A DNA stretch of 64,000 bases from NCBI GenBank assembly GCA_020050435.1, contig JAGVKQ010000010.1, positions 55,355-119,354 on the forward strand, given 5' to 3'. This DNA comes from Candidatus Caenarcanales bacterium (lineage in GTDB: Bacteria; Cyanobacteriota; Vampirovibrionia; 2-02-FULL-35-15). Position 1 is the first letter of the stretch. Each line of letters starts with the position of its first letter. Shown here one piece after another: positions 488 through 64,000 of this stretch. The notes below the pieces were generated by a model. The model did not search any database. It had not been told where the DNA came from and saw only the letters and a program-made list of their open reading frames with translations. A program made the translations under genes and the position numbers.

Positions 488-520
488 ATATAAGACAATA
501 AAGAGCTGAATATTTAAAAC

Positions 521-997: not shown

Positions 998-1008
998 ATT
1001 CTTATAGT

Positions 1009-2799: not shown

Positions 2800-3613
2800 A
2801 GAATTAGTAGAACAGTTTTTAAAAAAGGAAGAAGAAACAATTAAATCCTTAAGAAAAGAAAAAAATAATCTTATTGAAACCATTAATGAAATAAGCAAAA
2901 GAGTAAATAAAAATGGAAGAGTAGTTTACATAGGAGCTGGGACCAGTGGGAGGCTTGGAATCTTGGATGCAGTAGAATGTAAGCCTACATTTAATACAGA
3001 TTTATTTCTTGGAGTAATTGCTGGGGGAAAAAAGGCCATTTTTAAATCTAAAGAAGGTGCTGAAGATGATGAGAAGCTTGGAATTAGTGACATAAAAAAA
3101 ATCAAATTAAAAAAAAATGATGTAGCCGTTGGAATCTCTGCAAGTGGAGAAACACCCTACACAGTTTCAGCTATCAAATATGCAAATAAAATTGGAATCC
3201 TAACGGTAGGAATTGCTTCAAATCCAAAATCCACATTAGTGAAAATATCAAAATGTAAAATTGCGCCATTAATTGAAAGAGAAATAATTCAAGGATCAAG
3301 CAGATTGAGTTCAGGAACCGTACAGAAAATTATATTGAATATGATCAGTTCAATCTCAATGATTAATGCTGGTAAGGTCTATGGCGACTTAATGATAGAT
3401 GTTCAGCCGACGAATAAAAAACTGGTTAAAAGGGCTGTTAATATTATTGCCATTATATGTAAAATTCCTTTTGATAAAGCCTTGATTCTATTTAAACAAT
3501 CAAATAGAAATGCAAGAGTAGCTATTATTATGCATTACAAAAAATGTGACTTAAACACAGCAAAAAAGCTATTATCAAAACCAAACTTTAACTTAACCTC
3601 AGTAATCGCCTAA
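2777..3613 (+). CDS. murQ: N-acetylmuramic acid 6-phosphate etherase (SIS domain)
   Basis: IGAGTSGRLGILDAVECKPTF and SASGETPY motifs are typical of MurQ/SIS-domain etherases. Length is about 278 aa. Confidence 0.8.
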   Translation: MKMSMKTKELVEQFLKKEEETIKSLRKEKNNLIETINEISKRVNKNGRVVYIGAGTSGRLGILDAVECKPTFNTDLFLGVIAGGKKAIFKSKEGAEDDEKLGISDIKKIKLKKNDVAVGISASGETPYTVSAIKYANKIGILTVGIASNPKSTLVKISKCKIAPLIEREIIQGSSRLSSGTVQKIILNMISSISMINAGKVYGDLMIDVQPTNKKLVKRAVNIIAIICKIPFDKALILFKQSNRNARVAIIMHYKKCDLNTAKKLLSKPNFNLTSVIA

Positions 3614-45743: not shown

Positions 45744-45785
45744 TAGCTTTGTCTTACACTGGTAAGATCGTTCATACAAAAATAT

Positions 45786-45840
<55 letters not shown>

Positions 45841-45859
<19 letters not shown>

Positions 45860-47595
45860 TCTTCTTGAAAGTAACTTAATCTAGATGCAACAGATTCTTT
45901 TGAATCTGAGCTTAAATCTCTGTTATCAATGTGCTTCCACGCTGATAGCGGATCACAATAGGCTTCAATAGTGACACATTTATTAAATGGGTCAAACTCA
46001 ATTCGTTTAATAAAAGTTTGTAAAATTGCTCTCTTTTCTTCATAGTTTGATTCTTCAAATAGACTAACAATGCTTTTAAATCTGTTTGTGAGACTATTTT
46101 TTGATGGAATTACTACAGGTCTTCTTATTCTTGTGAGTTCTTCTTGACAGCTAGATATTGATTTTTCCAATTCCTCTAGTCTAGACAATAGAGCTTGTAA
46201 TGCATTTTGAGGTGGATTTGTTGTTTCTAATGTTCTAAGCAAATTGGCTTTAGCATCTGTATCCAATTCAATTCTTTTTCTTAGCAGATCACAGTCATTT
46301 TTACTGACATTAGGAATATAAGATTTTAAAACCTCATTTATTGATTTTTCTATAATACTTTCATCATAAGTTAGCCCAATGCCTTTTAATACTTCAGCTT
46401 CAATCCAAGTGTAAGGTATGGTGTAAAGTGGTGCTCCACAGACTTTAGCCCCTTTTCTATCATAGGTGCCACACCTGTATCTTTTAGTCTTTCCTATTAT
46501 TTTTCCACCACAACTTGTACAAATAGAATATGGTGTTAGTAAATAAGCAGATTCTGATTTTTGTCTTCCTTGTGGTCTGGTAATTTTATTTGAAGGTTTT
46601 GCCATGTTTTGCAACATTTCATACTCTGATTTTGTTATCAATGCTGGATGTGCACTTTCAACTATTACTATTTCCTTGTCGGGCTTAATTTTTAATCCCA
46701 TTTGTCTTCTGTAACTACTCCAATTATGCTTGTTATAAACTCCTGTTCCTGTAAAACCAACATTTTTAGTAATCTCACAAATTGATGAATCTAACCAATA
46801 AGTTTTACGTGGAGCTGGAAGTTTCAACTCATTTAGATGGTCACGTATCCTATCAAAGCTCATACCCTTTTGTAACCTTAGATCGATTAAAATATAGCGT
46901 GCCCAACCTGCAATAGTTTTGGTTACAGGGTTCCCATCAATGACACAGGTAACAAGCTCATCGTTTTCAAGCCAAATAGTTTTAAGTAATGGGTCGCCAT
47001 TCCTCTTTTTCCCATATTCAATTCTGCCCCTTTTGTATCCATATAAAGGTAAGCCACCATTTTTAAAACACCAGCCAGTATCTTTATCTCTATCTTTTAC
47101 ATTTGTTTTACAACGGCTTAATACTCTTTCAGCGTGTTCAACATTATCAGCTTGTGCTTTAGCTTCCTGAAGAGCATCCATAAGTATTCCCATGGTAGAA
47201 TCTCTATTCTCGATATCTCCATGAACAAATCTTACTTCTATTCCATGTTTTTTAAGCTCATGTTTAAAATTAATACTACTTCTTCTATCCCTACAAAATC
47301 TAGTCTGGTCAAGTTGTAAAAAATATTTTATATCTGGATTAGAACAAGCCATTTCTCTTGATTTTTTAAAAAGCTCAGTATCACCACCAAACTTATATGC
47401 TGAAACAGCTTGTTTTTCTATAAACCAATAAATGTTACCGACATTTAATTTTATGGCAAGTTCTCTAACATTATCTACTTGAGTTTTTAAAGAATTTCTT
47501 ATTTCATCTTCTGAACCTTCAGAAACACGAGCCCTACCTATTGCTCTAATGGTGCTATCTGAAAGGAACTCAATTTCATAATCATTTTCATTCAT
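45841..47595 (-). CDS. Large serine recombinase (integrase)
   Basis: N-terminal resolvase catalytic region (IGRARVSEGSED, Ser25), recombinase domain, zinc ribbon (CTSCGG...RYRCG...CG) and a coiled-coil segment. Length 584 aa. Confidence 0.85.
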
Positions 47596-47856: not shown

Positions 47857-48156
47857 TTAAAGATATCCTTTCATTTTGCTGTATCTTGATTTTAAGTATT
47901 TCAAGTCATGGCATTTTCTACAAAGAAGAATATCTTTTGTCTGTGGTTTATAAAGTGTTGCAACTCGTCTTTTACAAGCTGGACAAACAAACCACAATCT
48001 TTCATTTCCAAAGTGACATTTTGTAGAAGTTATATTAATGTCTTGTCCTAAAGAATCAATCTTAGACTTTAACTTTGTTTTCACGAATTCAGATTTGATA
48101 CTTCTGACCAATTCATTTATATTTAATTTTTGGCAATGTTCAATTAACAACTTCAT
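47857..48156 (-). CDS. Zinc-ribbon protein (99 aa)
   Basis: CHFG...CPACKRR...CRKCH gives two CxxC-type pairs. It overlaps the upstream ORF by 17 nt. Confidence 0.4.
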   Translation of the reverse strand: MKLLIEHCQKLNINELVRSIKSEFVKTKLKSKIDSLGQDINITSTKCHFGNERLWFVCPACKRRVATLYKPQTKDILLCRKCHDLKYLKSRYSKMKGYL

Positions 48157-48808
48157 AAAAATCTCCTAAATCATTTGGCTTTAATGATTCTTCTTTATTA
48201 ATAATTTGCTGGTTTTGAGCCAGGTAAGCATTATCAGCATTTACTCGTATATTTAATCTAGGTTGCTTTAGATTTCTTAGAAAAGTCAGTCCAGATTCAA
48301 ACTGCCTACTAGCCAACTCTATGCCTTTATAAAGTTCTTTAGCAACCCTTAGTTTTAAATCATTAAAAGAAAACTTATCAGGCTCTTCTTCAAAGAGCCT
48401 ATTCAGGTAAGATTCGTATCTTATTCCTCTCCAATATGCTGACACTATTCTATCTACTAGCATTAATTCTGAAGTTCCTTGGCATTTGTATTCTTTAATT
48501 AGATCTTGTCTAATCTTTGCTAATCCTTTTGCGTATGAAAGATTATTTACTATTGACTGGAGAAATACCCCATTATTAAGTCCAAAGGTCAAAATAAGTT
48601 CTTTGCCTAAGACTTCTTTTTTTTCTGCTTGTTCTTTTGATAAGTTCTTTAATTTTGAAAATTCATTAAACTCACTTAACCGATCATTTTCATCTAAAGT
48701 GGGAGCACTAAATCTTTCTTTCCAATTTTCAATTTCTGATAGTGTATTTTTAGTTTCGGCAAGTGCATTATTGTTTTTTATTTTACTTATCTTAGTTTTT
48801 TTACTCAT
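48140..48808 (-). CDS. Island protein (222 aa), unknown
   Basis: ORF in operon-like array downstream of the primase-helicase. Predicted to be helical. No motif recognised. Confidence 0.4.
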   Translation of the reverse strand: MSKKTKISKIKNNNALAETKNTLSEIENWKERFSAPTLDENDRLSEFNEFSKLKNLSKEQAEKKEVLGKELILTFGLNNGVFLQSIVNNLSYAKGLAKIRQDLIKEYKCQGTSELMLVDRIVSAYWRGIRYESYLNRLFEEEPDKFSFNDLKLRVAKELYKGIELASRQFESGLTFLRNLKQPRLNIRVNADNAYLAQNQQIINKEESLKPNDLGDFYEVVN

Positions 48809-48855: not shown

Positions 48856-51084
48856 TTATCGGTCAGACTGATTAACTAAATCTGACAGTGTGCGTTGTCT
48901 TTGAGGCAAAGGTAAACCTCTAATCTTTTTACATTCCTCACTTAAAAACCACTCTAGCTCTGAGATAAGCTTTATTTCTTTTTCAGATTCATCAGTAGCA
49001 CTTAAGCTAGAAACATAGACTACACCTAAGATTTTTAATTTTTCCATCTCTTTTAGTGCTGTAGGTTTTGAACATCCAAGAGCAACTTCTATTTGAGTAG
49101 TCTTAAGTTTTCCTTCTTTTTCAAGTAGTTTTCTAATTAGATTTGCTCTTACGTTAGGTGCACTATCAATAGATATTTCTATAGCAAGTTTAAGGTCTTC
49201 ATGATTAATAGATGTTCTTCCACAGGCTAAAGCATGACCCCTACAAAGGTTATATAAAAGCTGGTTTATCCTGTCTGGTTTTTCTATGACTAAGTTTGTA
49301 TGGTCATAGCTTTCACCATTTTGTGAACTATCCTTCCATACATTTATAGTTCCTCTTAGTTTTGCCAGTAGTTTTGCACATCTAGCTATAATCCTTAGGT
49401 TTTCAATATCTTCTTTAGACTTATCCCAGTCAATACCTTTAGGGTATTTATTCCATAGAGAGTACAAGAACTCCTTAGTAGTCTTTTTACACTTATTCTC
49501 TTTTATCTTATAAGAACTACCCATTAACTGATCTGCTAGTTCTGATTCAGACTTATCTTTTGAGTTCATGTTTAAGAAGAAGAGCCTAGCTCCTAGATTT
49601 CCCATTGTTTTCCATACCCTTGGCTGTATTGGTGTAGAACCAGCTACCATCATGAAAAGGTAGTCTCCTACATATTCTCTTTGACCATGGATACCACTAT
49701 CTGTCTGTAGTCCTTCACCATCAAGAACTCTAGTTAGAAGTCCTAAACTTTTTAACAAGTCATCATCTCTTTCACCAAATAGAGGTGCTAAATCTCTAAT
49801 GAGAAAAAGCTTGTATCTAATTCTTGGTAAAAGGTCTATGTCTTTCAATTGGTCTTTTCTAACATTTGTGGCATTAGATACAAATGAAGCTGGTGTAAAC
49901 TTGTCTGTTGAATAAGTTAAGTCTTTTATCTCTGAGAAAAAATTAATTGTAATTGTCTTACCTGCTGAAGGGACATCTATTAAAACTAGTGCAAAGGGAT
50001 TAGTTATATCATTTATAAGTAGCTGAGTAATTGTAGAAAGTATTACTTCTGCTGGGAAAGCACAATCTGGAAAGTTTGATTTTATAATATTTTTCCACTC
50101 TGAGAAAGTAACTTCATTTCTTGGTCTTTTTACCTCTTTTACTCTATTTACATCTTCAAATGAAACCATCTTTTTAACTAAGGATAAAAACTGATCTTTA
50201 GACCTTTTTTCATGAATAAAGAAATCAGTAATATCTTTATGACCTTCTTTCATATCTTCAGGAAGGTTTATTTTAAAAACTTCTGGTGAATCTAAATCAA
50301 CTATTCTTTTTACAAGTTCTAAAGCTGCTTTTTTACCTGGTTCATCTTTATCAAAACAGACTGTTACCTTATCTAAGTTTTTAATGTATTCAAACCACTC
50401 ATCTTTAAAAGTGCTACATCCACCAGTAGAGGTTATAGCTGGAATACCTTGACTGAGTAAAACCAAACAATCAAATTCACCTTCACAAATCATTATTTCA
50501 GAGCTTTCTTTTATGGCTTCTATATTAAAGAGTTGATGTTCAGCTCCTTTTGGATAAACAAGCATTTTAGGACTATCTGAAGTGTCATCTGGAAGTTTTC
50601 TAAGTTTTACTAAAGGATAATTACCATCTATATCTTTTATAGGTATAGTAATCCACTCTTTTCCATAGAAAGTACCAAACCCTAGTTTGAACTTATTTAT
50701 AAGGTCATCTGGAATACCTCTATTATTTAAATAGCTTCTTAAATCAGTAGTTAATGCATTATGCCAACTTTCTACTTGTTCAGGTGTAATAGGTTCAGGA
50801 TTTGAAGATTTCTCCTTCTTGCTTGGCTTGGTTTTATAGGATTTTAACTCATCGCCAAAATGCTTTGCTAGAGTTAAAAGATTTCCTTTACCGTCACACT
50901 TTTTACAGTGATACTGACCAGTTTCAGAGCACATATACATGTGTCTTTCTCCAGGTCTACTATCATCATCACAACCAAAGAGACAAGCTAAAACCAGCTC
51001 ATTTCCTGATTCTTTATACTCTATTCTTTTTTCATTTAGATATTCTTTGGGTGTAGTTTTCATATTAATCTTCCTTATATTCAT
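48856..51084 (-). CDS. Zinc-finger / Toprim primase fused to P-loop helicase-like ATPase with C-terminal winged-HTH
   Basis: N-terminal Cys pairs (CLFGC...HCKKCDG), Toprim (ICEGEFDC...CFDKDEPG), Walker A (DVPSAGKT), Walker B-like (LFLIRDL), and a C-terminal HTH-like segment (TTQIEVALGCSKPTALKEMEKL). Confidence 0.7.
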   Translation of the reverse strand: MNIRKINMKTTPKEYLNEKRIEYKESGNELVLACLFGCDDDSRPGERHMYMCSETGQYHCKKCDGKGNLLTLAKHFGDELKSYKTKPSKKEKSSNPEPITPEQVESWHNALTTDLRSYLNNRGIPDDLINKFKLGFGTFYGKEWITIPIKDIDGNYPLVKLRKLPDDTSDSPKMLVYPKGAEHQLFNIEAIKESSEIMICEGEFDCLVLLSQGIPAITSTGGCSTFKDEWFEYIKNLDKVTVCFDKDEPGKKAALELVKRIVDLDSPEVFKINLPEDMKEGHKDITDFFIHEKRSKDQFLSLVKKMVSFEDVNRVKEVKRPRNEVTFSEWKNIIKSNFPDCAFPAEVILSTITQLLINDITNPFALVLIDVPSAGKTITINFFSEIKDLTYSTDKFTPASFVSNATNVRKDQLKDIDLLPRIRYKLFLIRDLAPLFGERDDDLLKSLGLLTRVLDGEGLQTDSGIHGQREYVGDYLFMMVAGSTPIQPRVWKTMGNLGARLFFLNMNSKDKSESELADQLMGSSYKIKENKCKKTTKEFLYSLWNKYPKGIDWDKSKEDIENLRIIARCAKLLAKLRGTINVWKDSSQNGESYDHTNLVIEKPDRINQLLYNLCRGHALACGRTSINHEDLKLAIEISIDSAPNVRANLIRKLLEKEGKLKTTQIEVALGCSKPTALKEMEKLKILGVVYVSSLSATDESEKEIKLISELEWFLSEECKKIRGLPLPQRQRTLSDLVNQSDR

Positions 51085-51107
51085 AAAAAACTTTGAAGTG
51101 GCTTACA

Positions 51108-51347
51108 TTATTTTTGATAAATTCTGGTTTTAAGAAGTTTTAAGGAATTAAAGTATTTTATTGGACTAACCTTTAAGGTGTCAGACCAATATTTCTCTAA
51201 AACCAAATCAAGTTTGTCGTTTTTGTCATTGCGTTCAAAAATAAACTCTACTCTTGTTGGATCATTCTTTTTTATGGAATAATCAGGACAATAAAGAACT
51301 AAACAAGCTGACAATGCAAGGTCTGTAGTTCTATAGTGATTTTTCAT
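51108..51347 (-). CDS. 79-aa protein, resembles the DUF5659 family seen in phages/mobile elements (from memory)
   Basis: YRTTDLALSACLVL...VEFIFE...Y...F..LK.LK..I is the pattern I associate with DUF5659. Unverified. Confidence 0.35.
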   Translation of the reverse strand: MKNHYRTTDLALSACLVLYCPDYSIKKNDPTRVEFIFERNDKNDKLDLVLEKYWSDTLKVSPIKYFNSLKLLKTRIYQK

Positions 51348-51423
51348 ATTAATTTCCTTTCTTCTTAATCAGTTCAGAAAACAAAAAAGCCAAAGCTTTT
51401 ATACTTTGACTTTACTAAATTCC

Positions 51424-51456
51424 TTGTCTGCTATTGTCTGGCAGATTTCTGGCAGA
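51424..51456. promoter_or_regulatory. Iterated TTGTCTG / TCTGGCAGA sites with 10-11-bp periodicity (operator/iteron-like)
   Basis: TTGTCTGctaTTGTCTGGCAGAttTCTGGCAGA. The two TCTGgCAGA units are each palindromic. They lie between the stop of the 521-aa gene and the DUF5659-like/primase module. Confidence 0.4.
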
Positions 51457-53022
51457 CTAACTCGAATAGTTTCTTATTACACCTTTGTTTTTATATGTTA
51501 GGAGCTCATCATTGGTGTTTAAGATCAATTTTACTTTTTCATTAATTCCTGAAACTGCATTATTTATTTTTTTCCATTGCTTTGGTTCAGGATCATCAAT
51601 TCCTGCTATAGATTCATAAATTTCATCCCAAGAATAGTGTTTTTTAGGTTCTTGCTCAAACATAAATTTGCAGACATAGTATTGATTTGTGTCTTTACCG
51701 AATAAAATAGTCTTGGTTCCTAATATCAGTTCTCCGTTCTCGTTACCATTATCAAGATTAAAACTTATTTCAATGTCTTTTAAAAATACTTTTTCTGTTT
51801 TATGTGGATCAGCTATTTTAATTTTTTCGCTCGGATTAACTAATGCCTTTTCCAGTTTATTAGTATCAGCTACTAATCTTATAAATATGTCATCTTTATC
51901 TGACCATTTTATTTTATAATTACCAATTTGAAGTATCTCTATTAAACCTTCGTATTCTAAAGCACAGACTGTTCTAAGTAAATCAATGTCTGGATCTTTA
52001 ATTGAATTAAAAGAAATAACAATTTGTTCAGTCTTATATTTTCCATATAAGTTTAGAATTTCTTTTATAACTATTTGCTTTTGTGTACTATAGGGATAAA
52101 AGTTATATGCCCAAAGAGCATTTGCATTTCCTTCATGTTGTTTATAATATCTGTTTTCGTTTCTAGAACTTTGAGCATTTAATTTTATTATATCCATTCC
52201 TGCTTCATTTAGCTTTAACTTTTTATCATCATAAATATATTTTTCAATCTCAGTATTTATTTCTTTTAAAATAGCTTCATGCTGTGAAAAAGTTGTAAGG
52301 TTTCCATCATCATCTTCAATATGTTCTTCATTAAAACAAGTTGTATCTATTGCTATATATTCATTGTCAAGTTTTTCGGGAGAATTGTCTAATTCTTCAA
52401 AAAGTTTAAAATTAAAATCATCATCTTTATCCCACAGATTAAAATCATCTGATGTGTTACCCCCAAAACCAATTAAATCTCTAGAATATAAGTCACTTAT
52501 TATGTCCATTATTTGATATAAAGTGTTGTTCTGGAGTGAAAGAGAAGAAAATTCATAAGGGATATCGTCTATGTAATCTGCTTCCACCACTATTTTCATT
52601 TTTAAATAAAGCTCTAAAGATCTAGTTATTTCTTCTCGCTTAACTTCACCCATATAATAATGTAGGCAATCTTTGGTATATATCTTATTTTTGTATAAAA
52701 AAAGCTCGTTATGCAACAAGATTATAGTTAGCTCTTTTTCTAATAGTTTAAATTCTTCAACGTTTAGTTGATAATATAAATTATTTAAGAGTTCTTCTAT
52801 TAATTTAAAGAGTAAGATATGGTCTTTTTTCCCCCTAGAACTTCCTAAATGTTGAAAAACTGATTTAAATAATTCATAGCCAGATTTTTTACTTGAATGG
52901 AATATGCTTTTATAAGCATTTATATCTTTAAGAACTTTTGTTATGTCTAGCGAAGGGAGCCTGTAAAATAGCTCCTTAGTAATTAGATTAAGGTTTTTGG
53001 GGTTAATTAGATGTTTTGACAT
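51457..53022 (-). CDS. 521-aa orphan protein, putative partner of the SIR2 protein
   Basis: Long ORF 100 nt downstream of the SIR2 gene on the same strand. It has an acidic central segment. No Walker A, TIR, nuclease or protease motif is visible. Confidence 0.5.
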   Translation of the reverse strand: MSKHLINPKNLNLITKELFYRLPSLDITKVLKDINAYKSIFHSSKKSGYELFKSVFQHLGSSRGKKDHILLFKLIEELLNNLYYQLNVEEFKLLEKELTIILLHNELFLYKNKIYTKDCLHYYMGEVKREEITRSLELYLKMKIVVEADYIDDIPYEFSSLSLQNNTLYQIMDIISDLYSRDLIGFGGNTSDDFNLWDKDDDFNFKLFEELDNSPEKLDNEYIAIDTTCFNEEHIEDDDGNLTTFSQHEAILKEINTEIEKYIYDDKKLKLNEAGMDIIKLNAQSSRNENRYYKQHEGNANALWAYNFYPYSTQKQIVIKEILNLYGKYKTEQIVISFNSIKDPDIDLLRTVCALEYEGLIEILQIGNYKIKWSDKDDIFIRLVADTNKLEKALVNPSEKIKIADPHKTEKVFLKDIEISFNLDNGNENGELILGTKTILFGKDTNQYYVCKFMFEQEPKKHYSWDEIYESIAGIDDPEPKQWKKINNAVSGINEKVKLILNTNDELLTYKNKGVIRNYSS

Positions 53023-53059
53023 TATAATTCATCTTAATTTAAATCCTAATCTTTAGTTA

Positions 53060-53098
53060 TCTAGAACCTATTCTAGAATAGTAAATGAATATTTTCAA
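53060..53098 (-). promoter_or_regulatory. Candidate sigma70-type promoter TTGAAA-N17-TAGAAT whose -10 lies inside the palindrome TCTAGAA-CCTA-TTCTAGA
   Basis: On the minus strand, the -35 is at 53093-53098 and the -10 at 53070-53075. The 18-bp palindrome spans 53060-53077. The site is about 45 nt upstream of the 521-aa gene ATG. Confidence 0.4.
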
Positions 53099-53121
53099 AT
53101 TTAATCAAATTTTCAGCTCAA

Positions 53122-54291
53122 TTAACATCCTCCGCTTGATTTTTGCACAGGCTTTTTTCTGTTAGGTTGCATTGCTTCCAACAAGTTTTTAAATATTCCT
53201 TCTGTTAGAAAAGAATTGAACCCAGTATTAAAGAATTCTATATTTTTGTATATTTGCTTATATCGGTAGAGCAATTTATTATTACTAACTTTGTTTAAAT
53301 CTACAATAATAACTTTTTTGGGTTGGTTTATAAAACTTGCTCTTTTTAAAAATTGCCACATATGAATATCTGCTAAAGGTAACGAATAGCCAACAAAAAT
53401 TAAATAATCAGATTCTATTATGGAAGAAAATGCTTTCTTCCATAAGTTTGATATTGCGGGAATATCTAGCTTTTTGGATAAGGTTGGAGGGATAATTAAA
53501 ATTCTTGCTGGTTGACTATCTCTTGGGCAAGTTAAGCTTTCTTCTTCAAGATGATCAAATAAAGTTTTTATTTTAAAATCTTTTGGTTTAGGAATGTCAC
53601 ATCCCTGCTCTGGTCTGTTTTCATAGCAAATTCCAAAAGGTATTAATTCGACTGATTTACAATATGGACAATACTTGAAAGATAGGCTGCCATGCAATTT
53701 ATAAATGTCTAATTTGTCTGGGTTGTCATGAGCAGGTTCAATCCACCAGTTAAATGGATCAGACATAATATCTTCATAATTTGTAAAATCTATTCCAAGA
53801 TTTATAGTGGGATTAAAACTAGTGCAGGCATTTTCTAACAATGTATCATAATTCATGGTAATAAAAGAAACCTCAGAAAAGTATAAATTAGACTCTTTTA
53901 TTTGGTCTAAAAGGTTTCTGTATGAATTATATTTGTTATATGAATTAGAGGTATTTATTGCTTCTATTAGGCAGGCAATCAATGCATTTTTTATTTTTAA
54001 GAGATTACTTTTAGAATATTCACTTTTAAGAGGTGCTTCATCATCAGTAGACAAATCAATTAATGCCAAAATATGTTCAAGCGTTGGTAAAGAATGTTTA
54101 TCGCTTAGTGTTTCAGGATCTATATTATAGACATCTTTTAAAAAACTTATAAAAAGCTTTCCAGTTTCTGATTCTTTTAATTTCTTATTTTTTAAGATAC
54201 TAGATAATATCTCATCTTGAAGCGGATACCCTTGTGCATAAGATGCACCAGCACCAAAAATAAAAGATATTTTCTTATGTTGCATATTCAA
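53122..54291 (-). CDS. SIR2_2-family (sirtuin-like, NAD+-binding) protein with Cys-rich insert
   Basis: Rossmann motif FGAGAS (aa 12-17), TMNYD (N147/D149), KLHGS (H200), FVGYSLPLADIH, and CPYC plus further Cys residues between them. This is the motif order of SIR2-like defence NADases. Confidence 0.8.
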   Translation of the reverse strand: MNMQHKKISFIFGAGASYAQGYPLQDEILSSILKNKKLKESETGKLFISFLKDVYNIDPETLSDKHSLPTLEHILALIDLSTDDEAPLKSEYSKSNLLKIKNALIACLIEAINTSNSYNKYNSYRNLLDQIKESNLYFSEVSFITMNYDTLLENACTSFNPTINLGIDFTNYEDIMSDPFNWWIEPAHDNPDKLDIYKLHGSLSFKYCPYCKSVELIPFGICYENRPEQGCDIPKPKDFKIKTLFDHLEEESLTCPRDSQPARILIIPPTLSKKLDIPAISNLWKKAFSSIIESDYLIFVGYSLPLADIHMWQFLKRASFINQPKKVIIVDLNKVSNNKLLYRYKQIYKNIEFFNTGFNSFLTEGIFKNLLEAMQPNRKKPVQKSSGGC

Positions 54292-54376
54292 AATTACTTA
54301 TCTACTTAAAGTTTTCTTCCCAACCCAAAACCCATCTTGGGTTAACTGAAGAAATTATTACATAGGACTTTAAAAG

Positions 54377-54607
54377 TTACTCTAAATCTGAAAGTAATAC
54401 TGAAGGTTTAACTTTTAATGCTTTTGCTATCTTTACAAGATTATAAATAGTAATATTTCTAGTAGCACATTCAACATGACTCATAAACGTACGATGTATG
54501 CCGGCTCTTTCAGCTAGTTCTTCTTGGGAAATCCCTTGCTTTTCCCTTAGCTTCCTTATGGTATAGCCTACAACATGACCGATTTCTTTAGACTTCTTAT
54601 CTGCCAT
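54377..54607 (-). CDS. XRE-family helix-turn-helix transcriptional regulator
   Basis: IRKLREKQGISQEELAERAGIHRTFMSHVECATRNITIYNLVKIAKAL is a canonical HTH_3 sequence. The gene is divergent from mod and upstream of SIR2. Confidence 0.8.
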   Translation of the reverse strand: MADKKSKEIGHVVGYTIRKLREKQGISQEELAERAGIHRTFMSHVECATRNITIYNLVKIAKALKVKPSVLLSDLE

Positions 54608-54630: not shown

Positions 54631-54672
54631 GACTATACGTCTACACTCTAGTCGTAACTAAAATGATAGAAT
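54631..54672. promoter_or_regulatory. Divergent control region: GACTA-N13-TAGTC inverted repeat plus extended -10 (TGATAGAAT) for mod
   Basis: The inverted repeat spans 54631-54653. TGnTAGAAT at 54664-54672 lies 40 nt upstream of the mod ATG. A minus-strand TATAGT (54633-54638) is a possible -10 for the HTH gene. Confidence 0.35.
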
Positions 54673-54712: not shown

Positions 54713-57238
54713 ATGCCTCGAACTAAGGGAAAAACAAAAAGCAACAAATCCACTAGTTCTGTAAAAGAAGTAGATTCTTATAACCATGAAGGCAAAAAGA
54801 GAAAAAACATTCCACAAGTTGGCCTGGTCTCAAGTGTTACAGATAAGCTAAATGGACGTACTAAATACCAGCATGATCCACACATTGACCCATGTTTAGG
54901 CTGGGCTGGTAAAGCTGAAGGGTTAAGTTTTGAAGTACAAAATGTCAGCCTTCATATACATGAAAGAATAGACCCTAAAAGAGTAATCAAGCAATTTCTA
55001 AAAGAAGAAGAGCAAATTCAAGAAAAACAGCTTTCACTTTTTCAACAACCTAATAACGAACCCCCATTAAATAGGGCTATCGATTTTTATTCACACGACC
55101 AGGACTGGACAAATAGATTAATTGCAGGTGATTCTCTTTTAGTAATGAACAGTCTTTTACACAAAGAAAGTATGGCTGGTAAGGTTCAAATGGTTTATAT
55201 CGACCCACCATATGGAGTTAAATATAATTCTAATTTTCAACCCTTTGTTAATAAAAAAGAGGTTAAAGACAATAAAGATGAAGATTTGCCTACAGAGCCA
55301 GAAACCATTAGAGCTTTTAGAGATACTTGGGAGTTAGGAATACATTCATACCTACAATACTTAAAAGATAGGTTACTGCTCACTAAGCAGCTATTGACTG
55401 AGTCAGGAAGTTGTTTTGTGCAAATCTCTGATGAGAATGTCCACCATGTTAGAGAGATAATGGATGAAGTATTTGGTACAGGTAATTTTATTTCAGTTAT
55501 CCCTTTTCGTAAAACCGTTGGTGCTACTTCCAATATGTTACCCACAGTTAATGATTATATTGTTTGGTATGCTAAATCAAAAAATATGCTGAAATTTAAT
55601 CCTCTCTTTACCGAAAGAGCTAATATTTTGGATTCAAAATTCTCATTGTATGAAAATGAGAAAGGCGATTTAATTTCATTAGAAGGTTTGGATATCAACA
55701 AAATTAAACTGGATAAATTAGTAGCATTAGATGATTTAACTTCTCAAGATCCAACGAAAACAGGCAACTTTCAAATTACTTTTAATAAGAAAACTTATCT
55801 CCCTGGTAGTAACCGACATTGGAGAACTACTAAAGAAGGAATTGACCGTCTCATTGAGTTAAATCGAATTATTGAGAGGGGGGCAAAGATTCTTTATAAA
55901 AGGTATTTAGGAGATTTCTCTTTGCTTCCACTAAATAATTTTTGGTTTGACACAGTAAATAGTTTTGAGAAACGCATTTATGTAGTTCAAACGACTCAAT
56001 TGGTTGTTCAGAGATGCCTATTAATGACTACCGATCCAGGAGACTTAATACTTGATCCTACTTGCGGATCAGGAACTACTGCCTATGTAGCGGAACAATG
56101 GGGTAGAAGATGGATAACATGTGATTCATCAAGAGTCGCTATTACGCTGGCAAAACAAAGACTTATGACTGCCAGATTCGATTACTATAAACTTGCATAT
56201 GAGAATGAAGGTATTAAAAGCGGATTTGAATATAAAAGGGTACCTCATATTACTTTACGTTCTATTGCAAATAATGAGCCCTCTCAAGAAGAAGTATTAT
56301 ATGATCAGCCCAGTTCAGATTCTAAAAAAACTAGAGTTACTGGACCCTTTACAGCAGAAGCTGTGCCTTGTCTTAGAACAAAACCATTTTCAGATGCTAA
56401 TAACCATATAGAAACTAATGGAAATCAAATAGCAAAGCTTGGTGAAACAGGAAATTATAAAGAATGGATGGATGAGCTTAAAGCTACAGGTATAAGAGCT
56501 GCTGGGAATAGGCTTATAAAGTTTTCTAGAATAGAACCTATGCCTGGAACTAGGTTTTTACATGCAGAAGCAGAAGTTTTAGAAGATACAGGAAAAACAA
56601 AAAAGGCTATTGTAAGTTTTGGTCCTGATTTTGGTCCTCTTGAACAAAGGCAAATCGAAATTGCTTTAAATGAAGTTAGAGACTTAAAAGATAAACCTGA
56701 TTTAGTAATATTTACAGCATTTCACTTTGATCCTGAAGCTGCTAAAGATATTGATCACATTGAAATAAAAGGAATTACCGTTCTTAAAGCTCAGATGAGT
56801 GGTGATTTACTTACTGCTGACCTTAGAAAGAAAAGAAGTTCTAACCAAAGCTTTTGGTTAATTGGTGAACCTGATATAGATATTACTAAAAATAAAGATG
56901 GTGCATATAAGGTTAAAGTAAATGGTTTTGATTACTATAATCCTATTTCTGGTGAATTGGAACCTGGTAGTTCAAAGAAAATAGCTATGTGGATGTTAGA
57001 CACTGACTATGATGAAAGAAGTATTTTCCCTGAACAAATATTTTTCCCTATGCAAAATGAAAAATTGAGCTGGGAAAAATTAGCTAAATCTTTAAATAGT
57101 CAGGTGGATGAAGAAAAGCTTGAGGCATTTAAAGGTGTTGAATCACTTCCATTTAAAGCAGGTGTAAATAGAAAAATAGCAGTAAAAATTATTGATGACA
57201 GAGGCATTGAAAGTTTAGTGGTTAAGAATCTACCATAA
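54713..57238 (+). CDS. mod: Type III-like R-M methyltransferase (Mod), N6-adenine/N4-cytosine beta class
   Basis: Motif IV DPPY (aa 164-167, nt 55202-55213) precedes motif I DPTCGSGTT (aa 448-456), which is the beta-class order. About 385 aa lie C-terminal to motif I. Confidence 0.8.
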   Translation: MPRTKGKTKSNKSTSSVKEVDSYNHEGKKRKNIPQVGLVSSVTDKLNGRTKYQHDPHIDPCLGWAGKAEGLSFEVQNVSLHIHERIDPKRVIKQFLKEEEQIQEKQLSLFQQPNNEPPLNRAIDFYSHDQDWTNRLIAGDSLLVMNSLLHKESMAGKVQMVYIDPPYGVKYNSNFQPFVNKKEVKDNKDEDLPTEPETIRAFRDTWELGIHSYLQYLKDRLLLTKQLLTESGSCFVQISDENVHHVREIMDEVFGTGNFISVIPFRKTVGATSNMLPTVNDYIVWYAKSKNMLKFNPLFTERANILDSKFSLYENEKGDLISLEGLDINKIKLDKLVALDDLTSQDPTKTGNFQITFNKKTYLPGSNRHWRTTKEGIDRLIELNRIIERGAKILYKRYLGDFSLLPLNNFWFDTVNSFEKRIYVVQTTQLVVQRCLLMTTDPGDLILDPTCGSGTTAYVAEQWGRRWITCDSSRVAITLAKQRLMTARFDYYKLAYENEGIKSGFEYKRVPHITLRSIANNEPSQEEVLYDQPSSDSKKTRVTGPFTAEAVPCLRTKPFSDANNHIETNGNQIAKLGETGNYKEWMDELKATGIRAAGNRLIKFSRIEPMPGTRFLHAEAEVLEDTGKTKKAIVSFGPDFGPLEQRQIEIALNEVRDLKDKPDLVIFTAFHFDPEAAKDIDHIEIKGITVLKAQMSGDLLTADLRKKRSSNQSFWLIGEPDIDITKNKDGAYKVKVNGFDYYNPISGELEPGSSKKIAMWMLDTDYDERSIFPEQIFFPMQNEKLSWEKLAKSLNSQVDEEKLEAFKGVESLPFKAGVNRKIAVKIIDDRGIESLVVKNLP

Positions 57239-57247
57239 GGATTTATT

Positions 57248-60001
57248 ATGAGTCAAAAAGTAATAGATAAACTAATTATAAATAGTCCATTTGAAGAGCC
57301 TAAGTATTACTGGGCTTATCTTAGAGAAAAACAAGAGTTTGAAAAAAAAGAAGGAAGAAGAAAAGCTGGATACTGGAAATCTTCTGGTGTAGGTAAAGTA
57401 AGTCATGATGACCCAGGTGAGTTTGTAGAAATAAAACTTGTAAATAATATTAGACCAAGGGTTCAGGCATGGGAAAAGAATAATTATCCAAATGTATCTG
57501 GAATAACAAGAAAATTATTGGAACATTGGCACGATAAAAATGTTAGAAATAATCAGTTTTTCTGGTGTCAATTAGAAGCTATTAAAACGGCGATTTGGCT
57601 TACAGAAGCAAGTTCAGCAGATAAGCAAGGGATTCAAATTGGTTCTGATGGTAGTGAATGGCAAAGACAATGCTTAAAATTAGCTACTGGCACAGGTAAG
57701 ACCGTAGTAATGGGAATGTTGATTGCTTGGCAGGTATTAAACAAAATATCTAATCCCACCGACACAAGATTTTCAAAAAATATTTTAGTTATTGCACCAG
57801 GTATAACAGTAAAAGATAGGCTTCAGGTTTTATTACCTGGAGACCCTGACAATGTTTATAACAGTTTTTCTTTGGTTCCTGCCTCTATGTTGGAACAGCT
57901 TAGAAGTGCAAAAATCCTTGTTAAAAATTGGCATGCACTAGCACCAATAAATGAAAATGGTGGACCAAAAGTAGTAAAAAAAGGTCCAGAAAGTGATGAA
58001 TCTTTTGTAAGAAGGATTTTGCCCGACTTTGGCACTTCAAATGACTTTTTAATTATTAATGATGAAGCTCACCATTGCCATAGACCAAAAGAAGATGATG
58101 AAGATATTGAAGAAGAAGATAAAAATGAAGAGGAAAAAGCTACTATTTGGGTTAGTGGAATAGATAAGATTCATAAAGCAAGAAAAGTCTTAAAAGCCTA
58201 TGATTTAACAGCTACACCATTTAAGCCAGGTGGTAGAGGTGGACAAAGTGAAAAACTGTTTACTTGGATTGTTAGTGACTTTGGTCTTAATGATGCTATT
58301 GAAAGCGGACTTGTAAAAACGCCAAAAGTAGCTGTTAGAGATGATTCTAAAATGAGTAAGGATGATTTTAAATCAAAATTATTTCATATTTATCCTCATG
58401 TAAAAGAAGATTTAAATAGAAGAGCTGATAAAGAAGAAGGTTTACCAGACTTGGCAAGGAATGGACTAAATATTCTTGGTACTGATTGGCTAGCAGATAA
58501 AGAGAATTGGGATAAAACTAACCTGGAAGTACCGCCAGTATTAATTGTGATTTGTAATCGTATTGAAACTGCTGCTAGGGTTGAATATTCCTTAATGCAA
58601 GGGCTTACTACTGTTAGTGAGCTAGCAGATAATGATGGGCTACTTAGAATTGACCAAGATGCTTTGGATAAAGTAGAAGCTGGTGATGAAGATTCAAATA
58701 AATCAAAAAAGGATTTAGCTAAAAAACAAAGGGATAAGTTTAATACTGTAGGAAAAAAAGGTAAGCCTGGTCAAGATATTCGGTGTGTTATTGGGGTAAA
58801 CATGCTTTCTGAAGGTTGGGATGCTAGAACAGTTACACATATATTAGGGCTAAGAGCTTTTACCAGCCAGTTACTTTGTGAACAGGTTATTGGTAGAGGA
58901 CTTAGAAGAATCTCTTATGATATTAACGATGAAGGATTTTTTGAACCTGAATATGTAACTGTATTTGGGATTCCATTTACATTTTTACCAATTGAAGAAT
59001 CTTCTGGACCACCTAAAGAAGAAAAGCCAAAAACCAAAATTGAACCTATTCAAGAAAGAAGTTCTTTTGAGATTAAATGGCCTCATGTATTAAGAGTGGA
59101 ATATAAGCTAAGTTATTTCTTGGAATTAGATTGGCATGAGCTAAAACCTCTTACACTATCATCTATGGATTGTCCTACAGTGGTGGATATTGCACCAGTA
59201 ATAGACAATAAGCCAGACCTTACCCAAATTGAAGAAATTAAACTGTTTAAACTTGCAGAAGAAGGAAGATTTAAGTCAGTGAAGCTTCAAGTAATCTCTC
59301 AAATTAGAGAACGTTTAAAAGGGAATTGGAAGGGTGATGCAGGAAGCCAAATATCTCAGCTATTACAAATCGTTGAACAGTTTATTGATTCAGATAAATT
59401 AATTACTAAAGTGCCTAAGTTTGAATATGCTGAATTACTAAGAAAAATAGTTATTTCATTAAATATGCAAAAAATAGTTAACCATATAGCTACTTATATT
59501 AAGGGACAAAGCAAAGAAGCACCTGTCCCAATTTTTGATTATGAAAGACCCGTAAGAAGCACTGCTACATCTGAGACATGGTTTACAAGTAAACCTACAC
59601 AGCCAGTTAAAAAAAGTCAAATAAGCCATATAGTAATAGATAGTGGATGGGAAGCCGTTGGTATTGAGTTTGAAAGAGATAGGATACCTGGACTTATTTC
59701 ATGGGTTAAGAATGACCACATAGGATTTGAAATATTCTATATGTGGGAAGGCTGTGTAAGAAAGTACTATCCAGATTTTCTTCTAAAGTTTGAAGATAAT
59801 AATTACATGATTCTTGAAGTAAAAGGAAAGCATAGAGAAGAAGATAAACCTAAATGGCAAGCTGCTGAAGAATGGGTAAAAGCAGTTAACTCAAATGGTA
59901 ATTTTGGTTATTGGGAGTTTAAAGTTCTAAAAAATCCTACAGATGTATTTGATGTGGTGAGAAAGCCAAAGTTAAAAAAAATAAAAGCTGGGGTAGTATA
60001 A
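57248..60001 (+). CDS. res: Type III-like restriction enzyme Res subunit (SF2 helicase + PD-ExK nuclease)
   Basis: Walker A ATGTGKT (aa 146-152), DEAH box NDEAHH (aa 272-), SEGWDARTV...EQVIGRGLRR motif VI region, and C-terminal PD...EVK (D843, E857, K859). Confidence 0.8.
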   Translation: MSQKVIDKLIINSPFEEPKYYWAYLREKQEFEKKEGRRKAGYWKSSGVGKVSHDDPGEFVEIKLVNNIRPRVQAWEKNNYPNVSGITRKLLEHWHDKNVRNNQFFWCQLEAIKTAIWLTEASSADKQGIQIGSDGSEWQRQCLKLATGTGKTVVMGMLIAWQVLNKISNPTDTRFSKNILVIAPGITVKDRLQVLLPGDPDNVYNSFSLVPASMLEQLRSAKILVKNWHALAPINENGGPKVVKKGPESDESFVRRILPDFGTSNDFLIINDEAHHCHRPKEDDEDIEEEDKNEEEKATIWVSGIDKIHKARKVLKAYDLTATPFKPGGRGGQSEKLFTWIVSDFGLNDAIESGLVKTPKVAVRDDSKMSKDDFKSKLFHIYPHVKEDLNRRADKEEGLPDLARNGLNILGTDWLADKENWDKTNLEVPPVLIVICNRIETAARVEYSLMQGLTTVSELADNDGLLRIDQDALDKVEAGDEDSNKSKKDLAKKQRDKFNTVGKKGKPGQDIRCVIGVNMLSEGWDARTVTHILGLRAFTSQLLCEQVIGRGLRRISYDINDEGFFEPEYVTVFGIPFTFLPIEESSGPPKEEKPKTKIEPIQERSSFEIKWPHVLRVEYKLSYFLELDWHELKPLTLSSMDCPTVVDIAPVIDNKPDLTQIEEIKLFKLAEEGRFKSVKLQVISQIRERLKGNWKGDAGSQISQLLQIVEQFIDSDKLITKVPKFEYAELLRKIVISLNMQKIVNHIATYIKGQSKEAPVPIFDYERPVRSTATSETWFTSKPTQPVKKSQISHIVIDSGWEAVGIEFERDRIPGLISWVKNDHIGFEIFYMWEGCVRKYYPDFLLKFEDNNYMILEVKGKHREEDKPKWQAAEEWVKAVNSNGNFGYWEFKVLKNPTDVFDVVRKPKLKKIKAGVV

Positions 60002-60003: not shown

Positions 60004-60462
60004 ATGAAAAACATCATTTTAGTTCTAATTGTTACTTTTATTTCACTTCCATCATTTGCCGATAACCTCAATATGCAACAAATAGGAAACTCTACTTACA
60101 CAAACGGTACTGTTAATGGTCAGCCATATCACACGACTACCCAAAGGATTGGTGGTTTTGAATATACAAATGGAAGTATTGGAAATCAGCCAATTCATAC
60201 AACTAAACAAAACATTGGAAGCTTTGACTATGTAAATGGAAATGTAGGAAATAATCCAGTCCATTTAACGGATCAGCAGATAGGAAACTTTAAATATACA
60301 AATGGAAATATTGGAAATGATACTTACCATACGACTACTCAAAAGATAGGTAATTTTGATTATACAAATGGAAATATTGGTGGAAACTCTATTAATACAA
60401 ATACTCAAAGAATCGGTGGGTTTGATTATACTAACGGTAAGGTAGGCGGGATTGGTGAGTGA
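60004..60462 (+). CDS. Secreted protein made of about 5.8 tandem 22-aa repeats (Q-x-I-G-x-F-x-Y-T-N-G-x-x-G...)
   Basis: Signal peptide (MKNIILVLIVTFISLPSFA), then 66-nt periodic repeats over 60076-60459. The start codon is 2 nt after the res stop. Confidence 0.55.
   Translation: MKNIILVLIVTFISLPSFADNLNMQQIGNSTYTNGTVNGQPYHTTTQRIGGFEYTNGSIGNQPIHTTKQNIGSFDYVNGNVGNNPVHLTDQQIGNFKYTNGNIGNDTYHTTTQKIGNFDYTNGNIGGNSINTNTQRIGGFDYTNGKVGGIGE
60076..60459 (+). repeat. 66-nt tandem repeat, about 5.8 copies, coding
   Basis: The successive units begin caacaaatagg / caaaggattgg / caaaacattgg / cagcagatagg / caaaagatagg / caaagaatcgg. Confidence 0.8.
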
Positions 60463-62379: not shown

Positions 62380-64000
62380 TTAGCCTTTAACATTAAAAAG
62401 TTTTAAACCGTTGAGTATTACCAAAAGTGCCATGCCAGAATCAGCACCAATAGCAAACTCAAGGCGAGTATATCCAAAAAGTGCCAGAACTAAAAAAACT
62501 GCTTTTACCAAAAGTGAAGCTGTTATATTTTGTTTAATTGTCACTAGGGTTTTTCTTCCGAGCTTTATTAGAAATGGGATATTTAAAAGATTATTATTCA
62601 TTAACGTAATATCTGCTGTTTCAATTGCTATATCAGAACCACCTGCACCAATTGCAATTCCTACATTTGAAGTTGCTAAAGAAGGAGTATCATTTACTCC
62701 ATCTCCAACCATTGCTACTGAATAATATTTCTTCTTTAAATCCTCAATTACTGTTACCTTTTCCTCTGGAAGCAAAGAAGCAAAAACATTTTTTATCCCT
62801 AGTAAACTTGCAACATAATTAGCAGCATGTTGATTATCACCAGTTAACATAGCAGTTTCAATTCCCAGGTTATGAAGTTTAGTTATTGCTTCATTAGACT
62901 CTGCTCTGAGGGTATCTGAAATAGCGAGGATGCCAACTATGTTTTCTTTCTCAGCTACTAAAACAACAGTCTTGCCTTCTTTTTCTAATTTTTCTGCTTG
63001 TTGTAAAACATCCGGTGAAGCAACTGCTGTTTCACTAATAAGTTTAAAATTACCAATATAATGTTCTAAGTTACCACAAACAAGGCAAATAGCTTTACCA
63101 CCTTTACCAGCAATATTTTCAAACTGTTCCATTTTATGTGAGGCTATACCATGCTTATTAGCATAATCTAAAATACTTTTAGCTAAAGGATGAGAAGAAA
63201 ACTGTTCAATCCCTGCAGCATCTGCAATAACTTCTTCTTTAGAATGTCCGCTAAAAGCTATAACATCTAATACCTCTGGTTCACCTAAAGTCAGTGTTTT
63301 TGTCTTATCAAAAGCTACTGCTTTTACTTTTGCTAAGGCTTCAAGATATTTACCGCCTTTTATTAAAACTCCTTTTTTTGAAGCTCCACCTATTGCTGAA
63401 GAAATAGAAATAGGTGTCGAAATTACTAAAGCACAAGGACAAGCAATTACAAGAAGAACTAAAGCCTTATACAACCAAATATTAAAATCAGCACCAAAAA
63501 GAACTGGTGGAATAATGGCTATAAGCAGAGCTAAAACTACTACAGTAGGAGTGTAATATTTTGCAAAGGTATCTATAAACTCCTGATATGGGGCTTTTGA
63601 TTTCTGTGCTTTTTCAACAAGAGAAATAATTTTGGCAAAGGTAGAATCTTTACTTTCTTTTGTTACTTCAATTTCTAAATATCCATTTTGATTATGTGTA
63701 CCAGCAAATACCAAATCGCCTGGCTGCTTGTATTTTGGCACTGGCTCACCTGTAATTGTTGCTTCATCAATTGATGATTCCCCCTCTTTCACAACGCCAT
63801 CAAGTGGAATTAAATCACCTGGACGAACAAGAATAATATCTTTTATTTTAATATCTTCAACTTTTAATTTTTCTCCATTTTTCAAGGTAGCAGTCTGAGG
63901 TGATTTTTTAATTAGGGCTTCAACTGCTTTCTTTGAACGCTCTACACCATAATCCTCAATAGCTTCAGCAAGAGAAAAGAAAAAGATTACTGCTGCAGCT
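62380..64000 (-). CDS. Heavy-metal translocating P1B-type ATPase, N-terminus outside window
   Basis: TGE, CPC (ACPCALVISTP), phosphorylation site as DKTKT, HP (SSHPLA), TGD and GDGVNDTP motifs. The frame stays open from 63885 to the window end, where it reads ...EAIEDYGVERSKKAVEALIKKSPQTATL. Confidence 0.85.
   Translation of the reverse strand, partial: AAAVIFFFSLAEAIEDYGVERSKKAVEALIKKSPQTATLKNGEKLKVEDIKIKDIILVRPGDLIPLDGVVKEGESSIDEATITGEPVPKYKQPGDLVFAGTHNQNGYLEIEVTKESKDSTFAKIISLVEKAQKSKAPYQEFIDTFAKYYTPTVVVLALLIAIIPPVLFGADFNIWLYKALVLLVIACPCALVISTPISISSAIGGASKKGVLIKGGKYLEALAKVKAVAFDKTKTLTLGEPEVLDVIAFSGHSKEEVIADAAGIEQFSSHPLAKSILDYANKHGIASHKMEQFENIAGKGGKAICLVCGNLEHYIGNFKLISETAVASPDVLQQAEKLEKEGKTVVLVAEKENIVGILAISDTLRAESNEAITKLHNLGIETAMLTGDNQHAANYVASLLGIKNVFASLLPEEKVTVIEDLKKKYYSVAMVGDGVNDTPSLATSNVGIAIGAGGSDIAIETADITLMNNNLLNIPFLIKLGRKTLVTIKQNITASLLVKAVFLVLALFGYTRLEFAIGADSGMALLVILNGLKLFNVKG

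Follow-up and report, generated by a model that had tools for sequence, protein, structure and literature searches.

The window analysed here is a 64,000-nucleotide (nt) stretch of contig JAGVKQ010000010.1 (positions 55,355 to 119,354) from the Candidatus Caenarcanales bacterium assembly GCA_020050435.1. On its minus strand, three co-oriented genes lie side by side: one for a 76-amino-acid (aa) XRE-type helix-turn-helix (HTH) protein (54607-54377), one for a 389-aa stand-alone SIR2_2 protein (54291-53122) and one for a 521-aa protein (53022-51457). An initial annotation, which had the coordinates of all three open reading frames (ORFs) exactly right, proposed that they form a single undescribed anti-phage cassette lying between a replication module on one side and a Type III restriction-modification (R-M) system on the other. 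We find the same surroundings, a defence-type cargo position on a mobile element. The cassette itself did not survive comparison with related loci: the 521-aa gene appears to belong to the core of the element, the HTH gene seems to encode an R-M controller (C) protein that recurs without SIR2, and adjacency on a mobile element has made three unrelated modules resemble an operon.

A stand-alone SIR2_2 protein and its relatives

The SIR2 ORF opens at a TTG codon; the N-termini of homologues fit better with an ATG at 54285, two codons further in, which is likely to be the true start. The protein matches Pfam SIR2_2 at 6.6e-10, above the gathering score, rather than canonical SIR2, and carries the GAGAS, N147-Y-D149 and H200-G-S motifs to which the initial annotation had drawn attention. 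In an alignment of 40 family members, G13/A14/G15, H200/G201/S202, P269, G301, S303 and D308 are invariant, and N147/Y148/D149 are conserved in 93-98% of the sequences. Because these residues are conserved across the family, the catalytic motifs appear to be real and under selection. With a Pfam SIR2_2 domain and NAD-binding GAG, N/D and H residues that are invariant or nearly so, the protein falls into the SIR2_2/SIRim class, a clade reported to be 12-fold enriched near defence genes (bioRxiv 10.1101/2024.09.18.613514).

The absence of a fused effector or sensor is borne out both by the Pfam scan, which found a single SIR2_2 domain, and by an AlphaFold2 model (predicted local distance difference test score (pLDDT) 85.7, predicted template-modelling score (pTM) 0.87), which consists of one SIR2 fold with a small insert. 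The sequence also contains a zinc-ribbon-like motif, C208PYC ... C255PRD. When the model was compared with the PDB using Foldseek, the best matches were SIR2 subunits of SIR2-HerA, also called Nezha (E ~1e-12), followed by those of DSR2, sirtuins, SPARSA and KomC. A profile search agreed in placing the SIR2-HerA SIR2 best, at E values of 4e-16 to 1.5e-13, and a single-sequence search of the PDB returned noise only. The SIR2-HerA structures (PDB 8sub, 8uae, 8w9l and 8yhx) are thus the nearest solved ones, at a remote level of homology (15-17% identity, profile E 4e-16, template-modelling (TM) scores of 0.5-0.6).

As had been suggested from the gene content, the SIR2 protein and its neighbours fit no named SIR2 system (Thoeris, DSR, SIR2-HerA, SPARSA/long-B prokaryotic Argonaute (pAgo), Avs or Kongming), since the required partner or fusion features are missing for every one of them. 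The ten proteins encoded between 45841 and 60001, which were scanned with Pfam and PADLOC, include no TIR, Walker-A ATPase of the HerA type, PIWI/APAZ or STAND partner. Like the SIR2 subunit of SIR2-HerA, the window protein is a single-domain SIR2_2 protein in the ~350-430 aa range with the same GAG, N/D and HGS motifs. Unlike that subunit, it has no HerA/DUF87 ATPase nearby and no P-loop ATPase among its neighbours (the 521-aa protein has no ATPase match or fold), and it belongs to a family with a zinc-ribbon-like insert and without a conserved partner. Its top PADLOC match, at 7e-12, is the Argonaute-associated SIR2 of long-B pAgo systems (Aga_SIR2), likewise a separate SIR2_2 protein of ~350 aa; this match is partial, covering only residues 98-206. 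In contrast to SPARSA and long-B pAgo systems, there is no PIWI, MID or APAZ match at the locus, and the 521-aa neighbour is free of such domains.

The SIR2 domains of DSR1/DSR2, ThsA, SPARSA, KomC and Avs5 share the SIR2_2-class NAD-binding core and catalytic residues with the window protein, although their matches to it are weak. It differs from these systems in having no fused SLOG, Macro, HEAT-like C-terminal domain, APAZ or STAND, and none of the partner genes for a ThsB TIR protein, pAgo or KomA/KomB stands beside it. Where Thoeris pairs a ThsB TIR protein with a ThsA that joins SIR2 to SLOG/Macro, the scanned proteins gave no ThsB TIR match and the window protein, a single SIR2_2 domain, matched the ThsA profile only at E 0.005-0.14. 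DSR1/DSR2 proteins are ~1000 aa long with a C-terminal sensor, as against 389 aa here, and the DSR2 fold matches the SIR2 core only (E ~1e-6 to 1e-7). STAND-SIR2 proteins of the Avs type carry a fused STAND NTPase or sensor that this single-domain protein does not have, and of the Kongming (KomABC) components only KomC was matched, at E 1e-3 to 4e-3, with no PADLOC Kongming match among the neighbours. To our knowledge, the well-studied SIR2 NADase defences all need a fused sensor or a partner (TIR, HerA, pAgo or STAND).

Sequence searches detected 62 homologues of the SIR2 protein, the best two being 43% and 37% identical, and a scan of GTDB representatives added 284 more, all at ≤34% identity and spread over many phyla, including archaea. 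In the 87 loci with SIR2 relatives that made up our neighbourhood set, hidden Markov models (HMMs) of the 521-aa family, both close and remote, had zero matches; conversely, the SIR2 HMM had zero matches in 128 kb of 14 loci related to the 521-aa orphan or to the HTH gene. The pair of SIR2 and 521-aa genes is therefore found together in none of these loci, and no homologue of the HTH gene was found beside any SIR2 relative. Clustering of the neighbours in the 87 loci revealed no cross-phylum partner; the only recurrent neighbours are housekeeping genes (mnmE, mnmG, rsmG, a SIS-domain gene and HflX), reflecting lineage synteny. The SIR2 protein is, in sum, a member of a sparse family of stand-alone, 'sirim'-type SIR2_2 proteins of ~350-390 aa with no recurrent partner.

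The closer homologues occupy conflict-type settings, on a mobile element or in a defence island. The 37% homologue (P0007) shares its island with an MmeI-like R-M system, a SIR2+DUF87 pair, a trypsin-like protease and a DUF4238 gene, with an insertion sequence element adjoining, and another relative (P0012) adjoins a CHAT protease and an Nmad3 protein. In addition, some relatives, among them P0008 (528 aa) and the protein encoded at 7617-9074 of locus L022, have an N-terminal RAMA (Restriction Enzyme Adenine Methylase Associated) domain. These RAMA fusions hint at a recurrent link between the SIR2 clade and DNA-modification systems.

The HTH gene and the Type III R-M system

By sequence, the HTH protein is a predicted homologue of R-M controller proteins. 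It matches Pfam HTH_3 at 3e-14, its best PADLOC family is Control_protein (4e-21), and it is 47-55% identical to the C proteins of plasmid operons that lead from an HTH gene to a restriction endonuclease gene and have a methyltransferase gene adjoining (NZ_CP104531, CP128450). In these nearest plasmid homologues, the HTH gene is the first of its operon and has canonical C-boxes upstream.

The C-box consensus has been given as GACT-N3-AGTC-TGTA-GACT-N3-AGTC (PMC2175313). At 54631-54656 on the minus strand, ending 23 nt before the HTH ATG, the window has a C-box-like operator, TACG-ACT-AGAG-TGTA-GACG-TAT-AGTC, with a PvuII-type spacer and right half (TGTA-GACG-TAT-AGTC) and a degenerate left half (15/20 consensus positions). 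The pattern TGTAGACNNNNAGTC has a single occurrence in the 64-kb window, against 0.01 expected by chance. Past the C-box come a putative -35 (TAGACG) and a putative -10 (TATTCT) that ends 7 nt before the ATG, an arrangement which we take to resemble the leaderless pvuIIC promoter. Operator and promoter are invariant in three loci, namely the window, the sister element L113 and locus L115, even where the sequence further upstream diverges.

Divergent from the HTH gene lies a complete Type III R-M pair, in which a Mod methyltransferase gene (54713-57238, plus strand; PADLOC MTase_III at 4.8e-154, Pfam N6_N4_Mtase) is followed by a gene for a Res helicase-nuclease (57248-60001, plus strand; PADLOC REase_III, Pfam ResIII) that combines ResIII with a C-terminal TnsA-like nuclease region. 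The layout thus recalls C-controlled Type II R-M operons of the C.PvuII type in that a C-box-like operator with a TGTA spacer lies upstream, and in that the C gene diverges from a methyltransferase gene and precedes a gene for a potentially toxic effector. It differs from them in that SIR2, not a restriction endonuclease gene, lies downstream and in that the adjacent R-M system is of Type III; the gene order at the HTH gene accordingly does not match the usual feature of C genes, co-transcription with the restriction endonuclease gene.

Homologues of the HTH protein at 72-96% identity are numerous, and the best homologue of the SIR2 protein is 43% identical. The sister element L113/L114 has a 96% HTH homologue and no SIR2, and in L115 an 87% homologue has no same-strand gene downstream. 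The gene following the HTH gene is thus SIR2 in the window and an unrelated 392-aa gene in L113, and L115 has none on that strand. Because near-identical HTH genes recur without SIR2, the HTH gene appears to be independent of SIR2.

Within the 3' tail of the HTH gene, at 54322-54343 on the minus strand, lies a hairpin, AACCCAA-N8-TTGGGTT. Together with a 3' tail of ~70 nt, it accompanies the HTH gene in two contexts, the window and L115 (~660-700), and might serve in termination, processing or recombination.

The 521-aa gene and the element core

The region is a small integrative element of at least ~14 kb, with a primase and a serine recombinase, inserted next to a tRNA-Met gene (45785-45861, plus strand; ARAGORN) that marks one of its ends. 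The 3' end of the tRNA gene is overlapped by the ORF for the element's integrase, a large serine recombinase of 584 aa (45841-47595; Pfam Resolvase, Recombinase and Zn_ribbon_recom). A direct repeat of the tRNA 3' end, which would mark the far end of the element, was sought and not found, as is expected for a serine recombinase. The core runs on the minus strand from the 521-aa gene, its first gene as judged by synteny, to a gene for a DUF5659-like protein of 79 aa (51108-51347; weak Pfam DUF5659 match), a 742-aa Toprim primase that would serve in replication (48856-51084; Pfam Toprim_2, PHROG DNA primase at 2e-29), three small ORFs, p222 (48140-48808), p99 (47857-48156) and p60, and finally the recombinase. 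p222 and p99 are 40% and 36% identical, respectively, to the ORFs at the same positions of the related element L094.

The description of the 521-aa protein as devoid of recognisable motifs proved accurate: searches of Pfam, PADLOC, NCBIfam and PHROGs, and of the PDB by sequence and by profile, came back empty, and neither the GTDB species representatives nor IMG/VR yielded a relative. Among 5.8 billion proteins, only three close relatives (49-53% identity) were found. A profile built from the four sequences then retrieved 377 remote relatives from 1.84 billion representatives, revealing a modular protein. The first ~400 aa are found again in proteins of 650-790 aa, and the last ~110 aa form the C-terminus of many proteins of 200-260 aa. 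Across the family (P0067, P0070-P0078), N-terminal extensions vary and the C-terminal domain is swapped between a type ending ...RNY and a 'FPHKLPAGT...YKKQKE...' domain.

In contrast to its sequence, the placement of the gene is informative. In the loci of all three close relatives and of five remote ones, a DUF5659 gene or another small ORF lies directly downstream, and a primase and/or recombinase gene follows wherever the contig extends that far. Among the close relatives, L001/L002 have the order relative, 61-aa ORF, ParB-methylase, primase, further ORFs and serine recombinase, and L003 has the relative, two small ORFs and a Toprim primase; no SIR2 lies within 8-10 kb of them. Among the remote ones, L094 carries a Type I/IIG R-M cargo, an HTH_17 gene and a 186-aa ORF, then a 647-aa relative and a core of DUF5659, 65-aa ORF, Toprim primase, 221-aa ORF, 115-aa ORF and serine recombinase, beyond which comes ftsX-ftsE-prfB. 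The 654-aa relative in L092 borders directly on a divergent mod/res-like pair, with DUF5659 coming next; in L098 the relative is followed by DUF5659, and in L093 by small ORFs. Compared with their equivalents in these loci, the DUF5659-like gene, primase, p222 and p99 of the window show 34-52% identity, with the primase 44-52% identical to those of L003, L094 and L098, and the DUF5659-like gene 33-37% identical to the DUF5659 genes of L092, L094-096, L098 and L113. Since relatives of the 521-aa gene consistently precede a DUF5659/primase/recombinase module and do so without SIR2, the gene appears to be an element-core gene at the head of the replication/integration module, rather than one for a SIR2 partner, as had been proposed.

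An AlphaFold2 model of the 521-aa protein (pLDDT 85.9, pTM 0.67) has several domains: a helical N-domain (1-147), an alpha/beta domain (158-245), a disordered linker (268-305) and two C-terminal domains (311-395 and 419-517) that are winged helix-turn-helix-like by secondary-structure order only. Foldseek comparison of the full-length model with the PDB and BFVD gave nothing significant. The order of secondary-structure elements hints at an OmpR/PhoB-type C-terminal domain; neither the match to the AdeR DNA-binding domain (E=0.68) nor an hhalign comparison with a four-sequence alignment seeded with a PhoB sequence (P=0.02) was significant. Its probable role is that of a multi-domain regulator that binds DNA, or of a factor that initiates replication of the element.

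The window element shares with L094, L113 and L092 a core order of 521-aa family member or analogue, DUF5659, Toprim primase, small ORFs and recombinase, and a variable cargo side that carries defence genes, R-M among them; in related elements this side holds R-M, DUF4062 and DUF3800 genes. Unlike these elements, only the window element carries SIR2, and the recombinases and several modules differ among them, indicating a mosaic family. The closest comparison is with sister element L113 (GCA_900206355.1), whose res, mod, primase and HTH are 98.5%, 78%, 84% and 96% identical to those of the window. In L113/L114, res and mod diverge from the HTH gene, which is followed by a gene for a 392-aa protein, DUF5659, primase, further ORFs and a serine recombinase. 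The 392-aa protein was detected neither as a SIR2 nor as a member of the 521-aa family. Break points in a blastn comparison delimit the block in which the window differs from L113 to 51073-54351; it contains the DUF5659-like gene, the 521-aa gene and SIR2, and is AT-rich, with a GC content of 0.283 against 0.325 and 0.339 in the flanks.

At its other end, beyond res, L113 has four extra genes (428-3407) that the window does not have, lying between res and a repeat-protein gene and encoding a DUF4062 protein, a 170-aa ORF, a Hypoth_Ymh protein and a DUF3800 protein. DUF4062 has been described as a TIR-like NADase defence (bioRxiv 10.64898/2026.05.01.722283). The Ymh protein has weak PADLOC matches to PD-Lambda-3_B and Aga_HEPN, and the DUF3800 protein matches DUF3800_VII at 1e-25. 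The segment marks a second variable defence slot. In the window, res is followed by a 152-aa ORF (60004-60462) with a hydrophobic, signal-peptide-like N-terminus, made up of five 66-nt (22-aa) tandem repeats of the type ...QxIGxFxYTNGxxG... (60091-60446). Its start is conserved immediately past the extra cargo of L113, and the ORF may be part of the element or a marker of a second cargo hotspot after res.

Interpretation of the junction

Taking these data together, we think it probable that the three genes, real as they are, do not form one system and that three independent modules of a mobile element meet at the locus, with SIR2 as a solitary NAD+-consuming cargo gene. One module would be the HTH gene with its own C-box and promoter, a C gene travelling with the divergent Type III R-M pair; another would be the element core headed by the 521-aa gene; and between them would lie the lone SIR2 gene, with all residues for NAD chemistry intact. 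Because a consensus scan predicted no terminator-like site between HTH and SIR2, we propose that SIR2 is transcribed by read-through from the C-activated, autoregulated promoter, so that, as for a restriction endonuclease, its expression would set in late and stay limited once the element has entered a cell. In this view the protein needs no partner, probably forms a homo-oligomer, and would consume NAD+ as an effector of abortive infection, supplementing the Type III R-M system next to it. This putative effector role is suggested by the SIR2_2/SIRim class of the protein, its intact active site and its cargo-side place on an element family that collects defence genes. SIR2 is thus at most a single-gene defence candidate, most likely a partner-less NAD+-consuming defence or abortive-infection gene read from a C-dependent promoter. 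A stronger version, by which a short, partner-less SIR2 with a zinc ribbon would both sense infection and consume NAD+ as a self-sufficient immune effector, a non-nuclease one timed by an R-M controller, and maybe a back-up to the Type III R-M system, strikes us as doubtful, and we offer it only tentatively.

Several observations weigh against our favoured reading of SIR2 as solitary, NAD+-consuming defence cargo. The proposed defence role is drawn entirely from context. SIR2_2 proteins have been described as lacking the sirtuin zinc-binding module (PMC12700824), a description from which the window protein departs by retaining its zinc-ribbon-like motif; such a motif is a feature of canonical protein-modifying sirtuins, and roughly half of the aligned family members have CxxC...Cxx[C/D]. 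The distant relatives of SIR2 (≤34% identity) are mostly found amid housekeeping genes. SIR2 is the last gene of an mnmE-mnmG-rsmG-(SIS)-SIR2 array in Ignavibacteria, Melioribacteraceae and related Bacteroidota-type metagenome-assembled genomes (L012-L020; homologues of 31-34% identity), a setting that disfavours a defence role for the whole family, and it neighbours HflX in some Bacillota. Moreover, a Pfam scan of 127 neighbours of SIR2 relatives found no recurrent family and no enrichment of defence genes. Co-transcription of HTH and SIR2 has to contend with the 85-nt gap and the conserved hairpin between them. As for the 521-aa protein, several remote relatives have sub-threshold AbiJ_NTD3 matches, so that it may have a conflict-related role; its assignment to DNA binding comes from secondary-structure order and nothing else; and the slot itself is variable, being filled in L113 by the unrelated 392-aa protein.

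The main rival takes SIR2 to be a sirtuin-like protein-modifying enzyme, a deacylase or ADP-ribosyltransferase acting on a host or element protein, which became cargo by chance and is no immune NADase. The zinc-ribbon-like motif and the housekeeping neighbourhoods of many distant relatives speak for it, as do PADLOC SIR2 matches that are weak and partial; yet Pfam assigns the protein to SIR2_2 and not to canonical SIR2, antiphage SIR2s come before sirtuins among its structural and profile matches, and it and its closer relatives sit on a mobile element or in a defence island, and on balance we regard a protein-modifying role as unlikely. Coupling of SIR2 to the Type III R-M system and pairing of HTH with SIR2 as toxin and antitoxin are both less likely than either of these readings. 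PrrC, with EcoprrI, is a back-up suicide module released upon inhibition of an R-M system, and SIR2 could by analogy be such a module, or a second effector timed like a restriction enzyme, linked to the Type III system through a shared C protein. The divergence of mod/res from a C gene that leads into SIR2 does mirror the plasmid arrangement, in which a methyltransferase gene diverges from a C gene leading into a restriction endonuclease gene, and the RAMA-fused relatives fit as well; against this, L113 has the same R-M and C module without SIR2, and no other SIR2 relative has an adjoining homologue of HTH, which leaves such coupling only a slim chance.

The chances of the original three-gene proposal are slimmer again. 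It holds that HTH, SIR2 and the 521-aa protein, or the last two, make up one new anti-phage system with the 521-aa protein as sensor or partner of the SIR2 effector, and it can point to genes that are adjacent, co-oriented and intact, to their shared place in the AT-rich block by which the window differs from the sister element, and to the domain shuffling and weak AbiJ_NTD3 matches among remote 521-aa relatives. Synteny largely refutes it, through the lack of co-occurrence in either direction and the consistent tie of the 521-aa family to the downstream DUF5659/primase/recombinase module. A separate transcript for the 521-aa gene is also hinted at by a promoter-like site before it (TTGAAA-17-TAGAAT, 53070-53098, minus strand, between the SIR2 stop and the 521-aa start) and a terminator-like hairpin and T-run just past its stop (51386-51413, minus strand); both come from consensus scans, the latter being a pattern match only, and promoter-like sites in the former region are no commoner than in shuffled sequence. 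Least probable of all, and indeed remote, is an Xre-RES-like toxin-antitoxin pair, with an XRE antitoxin and an NAD+-degrading toxin stabilising the element. The order of a small XRE HTH gene followed by a putative NADase gene and a weak NCBIfam similarity of HTH to HipB/HigA-type antitoxins are in keeping with such a pair, but near-identical HTH genes (87-96%) have no SIR2 downstream, the C-box at HTH is of the R-M type, and the two genes do not overlap.

What is new at this locus is a short SIR2 candidate that stands alone downstream of a C gene; the SIR2_2 class itself is known. Phage protection by the lone SIR2, if real, would give the SIR2 NADase defences a minimal architecture that needs no partner, and would show that C-protein switches find use beyond R-M systems. 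The analysis has in addition brought to light a so far uncharacterised family of small primase/recombinase elements, in which R-M, DUF4062, DUF3800 and SIR2 genes gather on the cargo side, and at the head of their core the uncharacterised, domain-shuffled family of the 521-aa protein.

Elsewhere in the window, which has a GC content of ~32%, a topoisomerase I gene (25308-27800) matches the NCBIfam model 'DNA topoisomerase I/SWI domain fusion protein' well, with 710 bits, though under the cut-off of 868; such fusions are typical of Chlamydiae, which is at most a faint pointer to the host lineage. A P-type ATPase ORF (62380-63885) has its TTG start inside the actuator-domain region (MKNGEKLKVEDIK...); it seems to be without the N-terminal metal-binding and transmembrane part and may be truncated or frameshifted.

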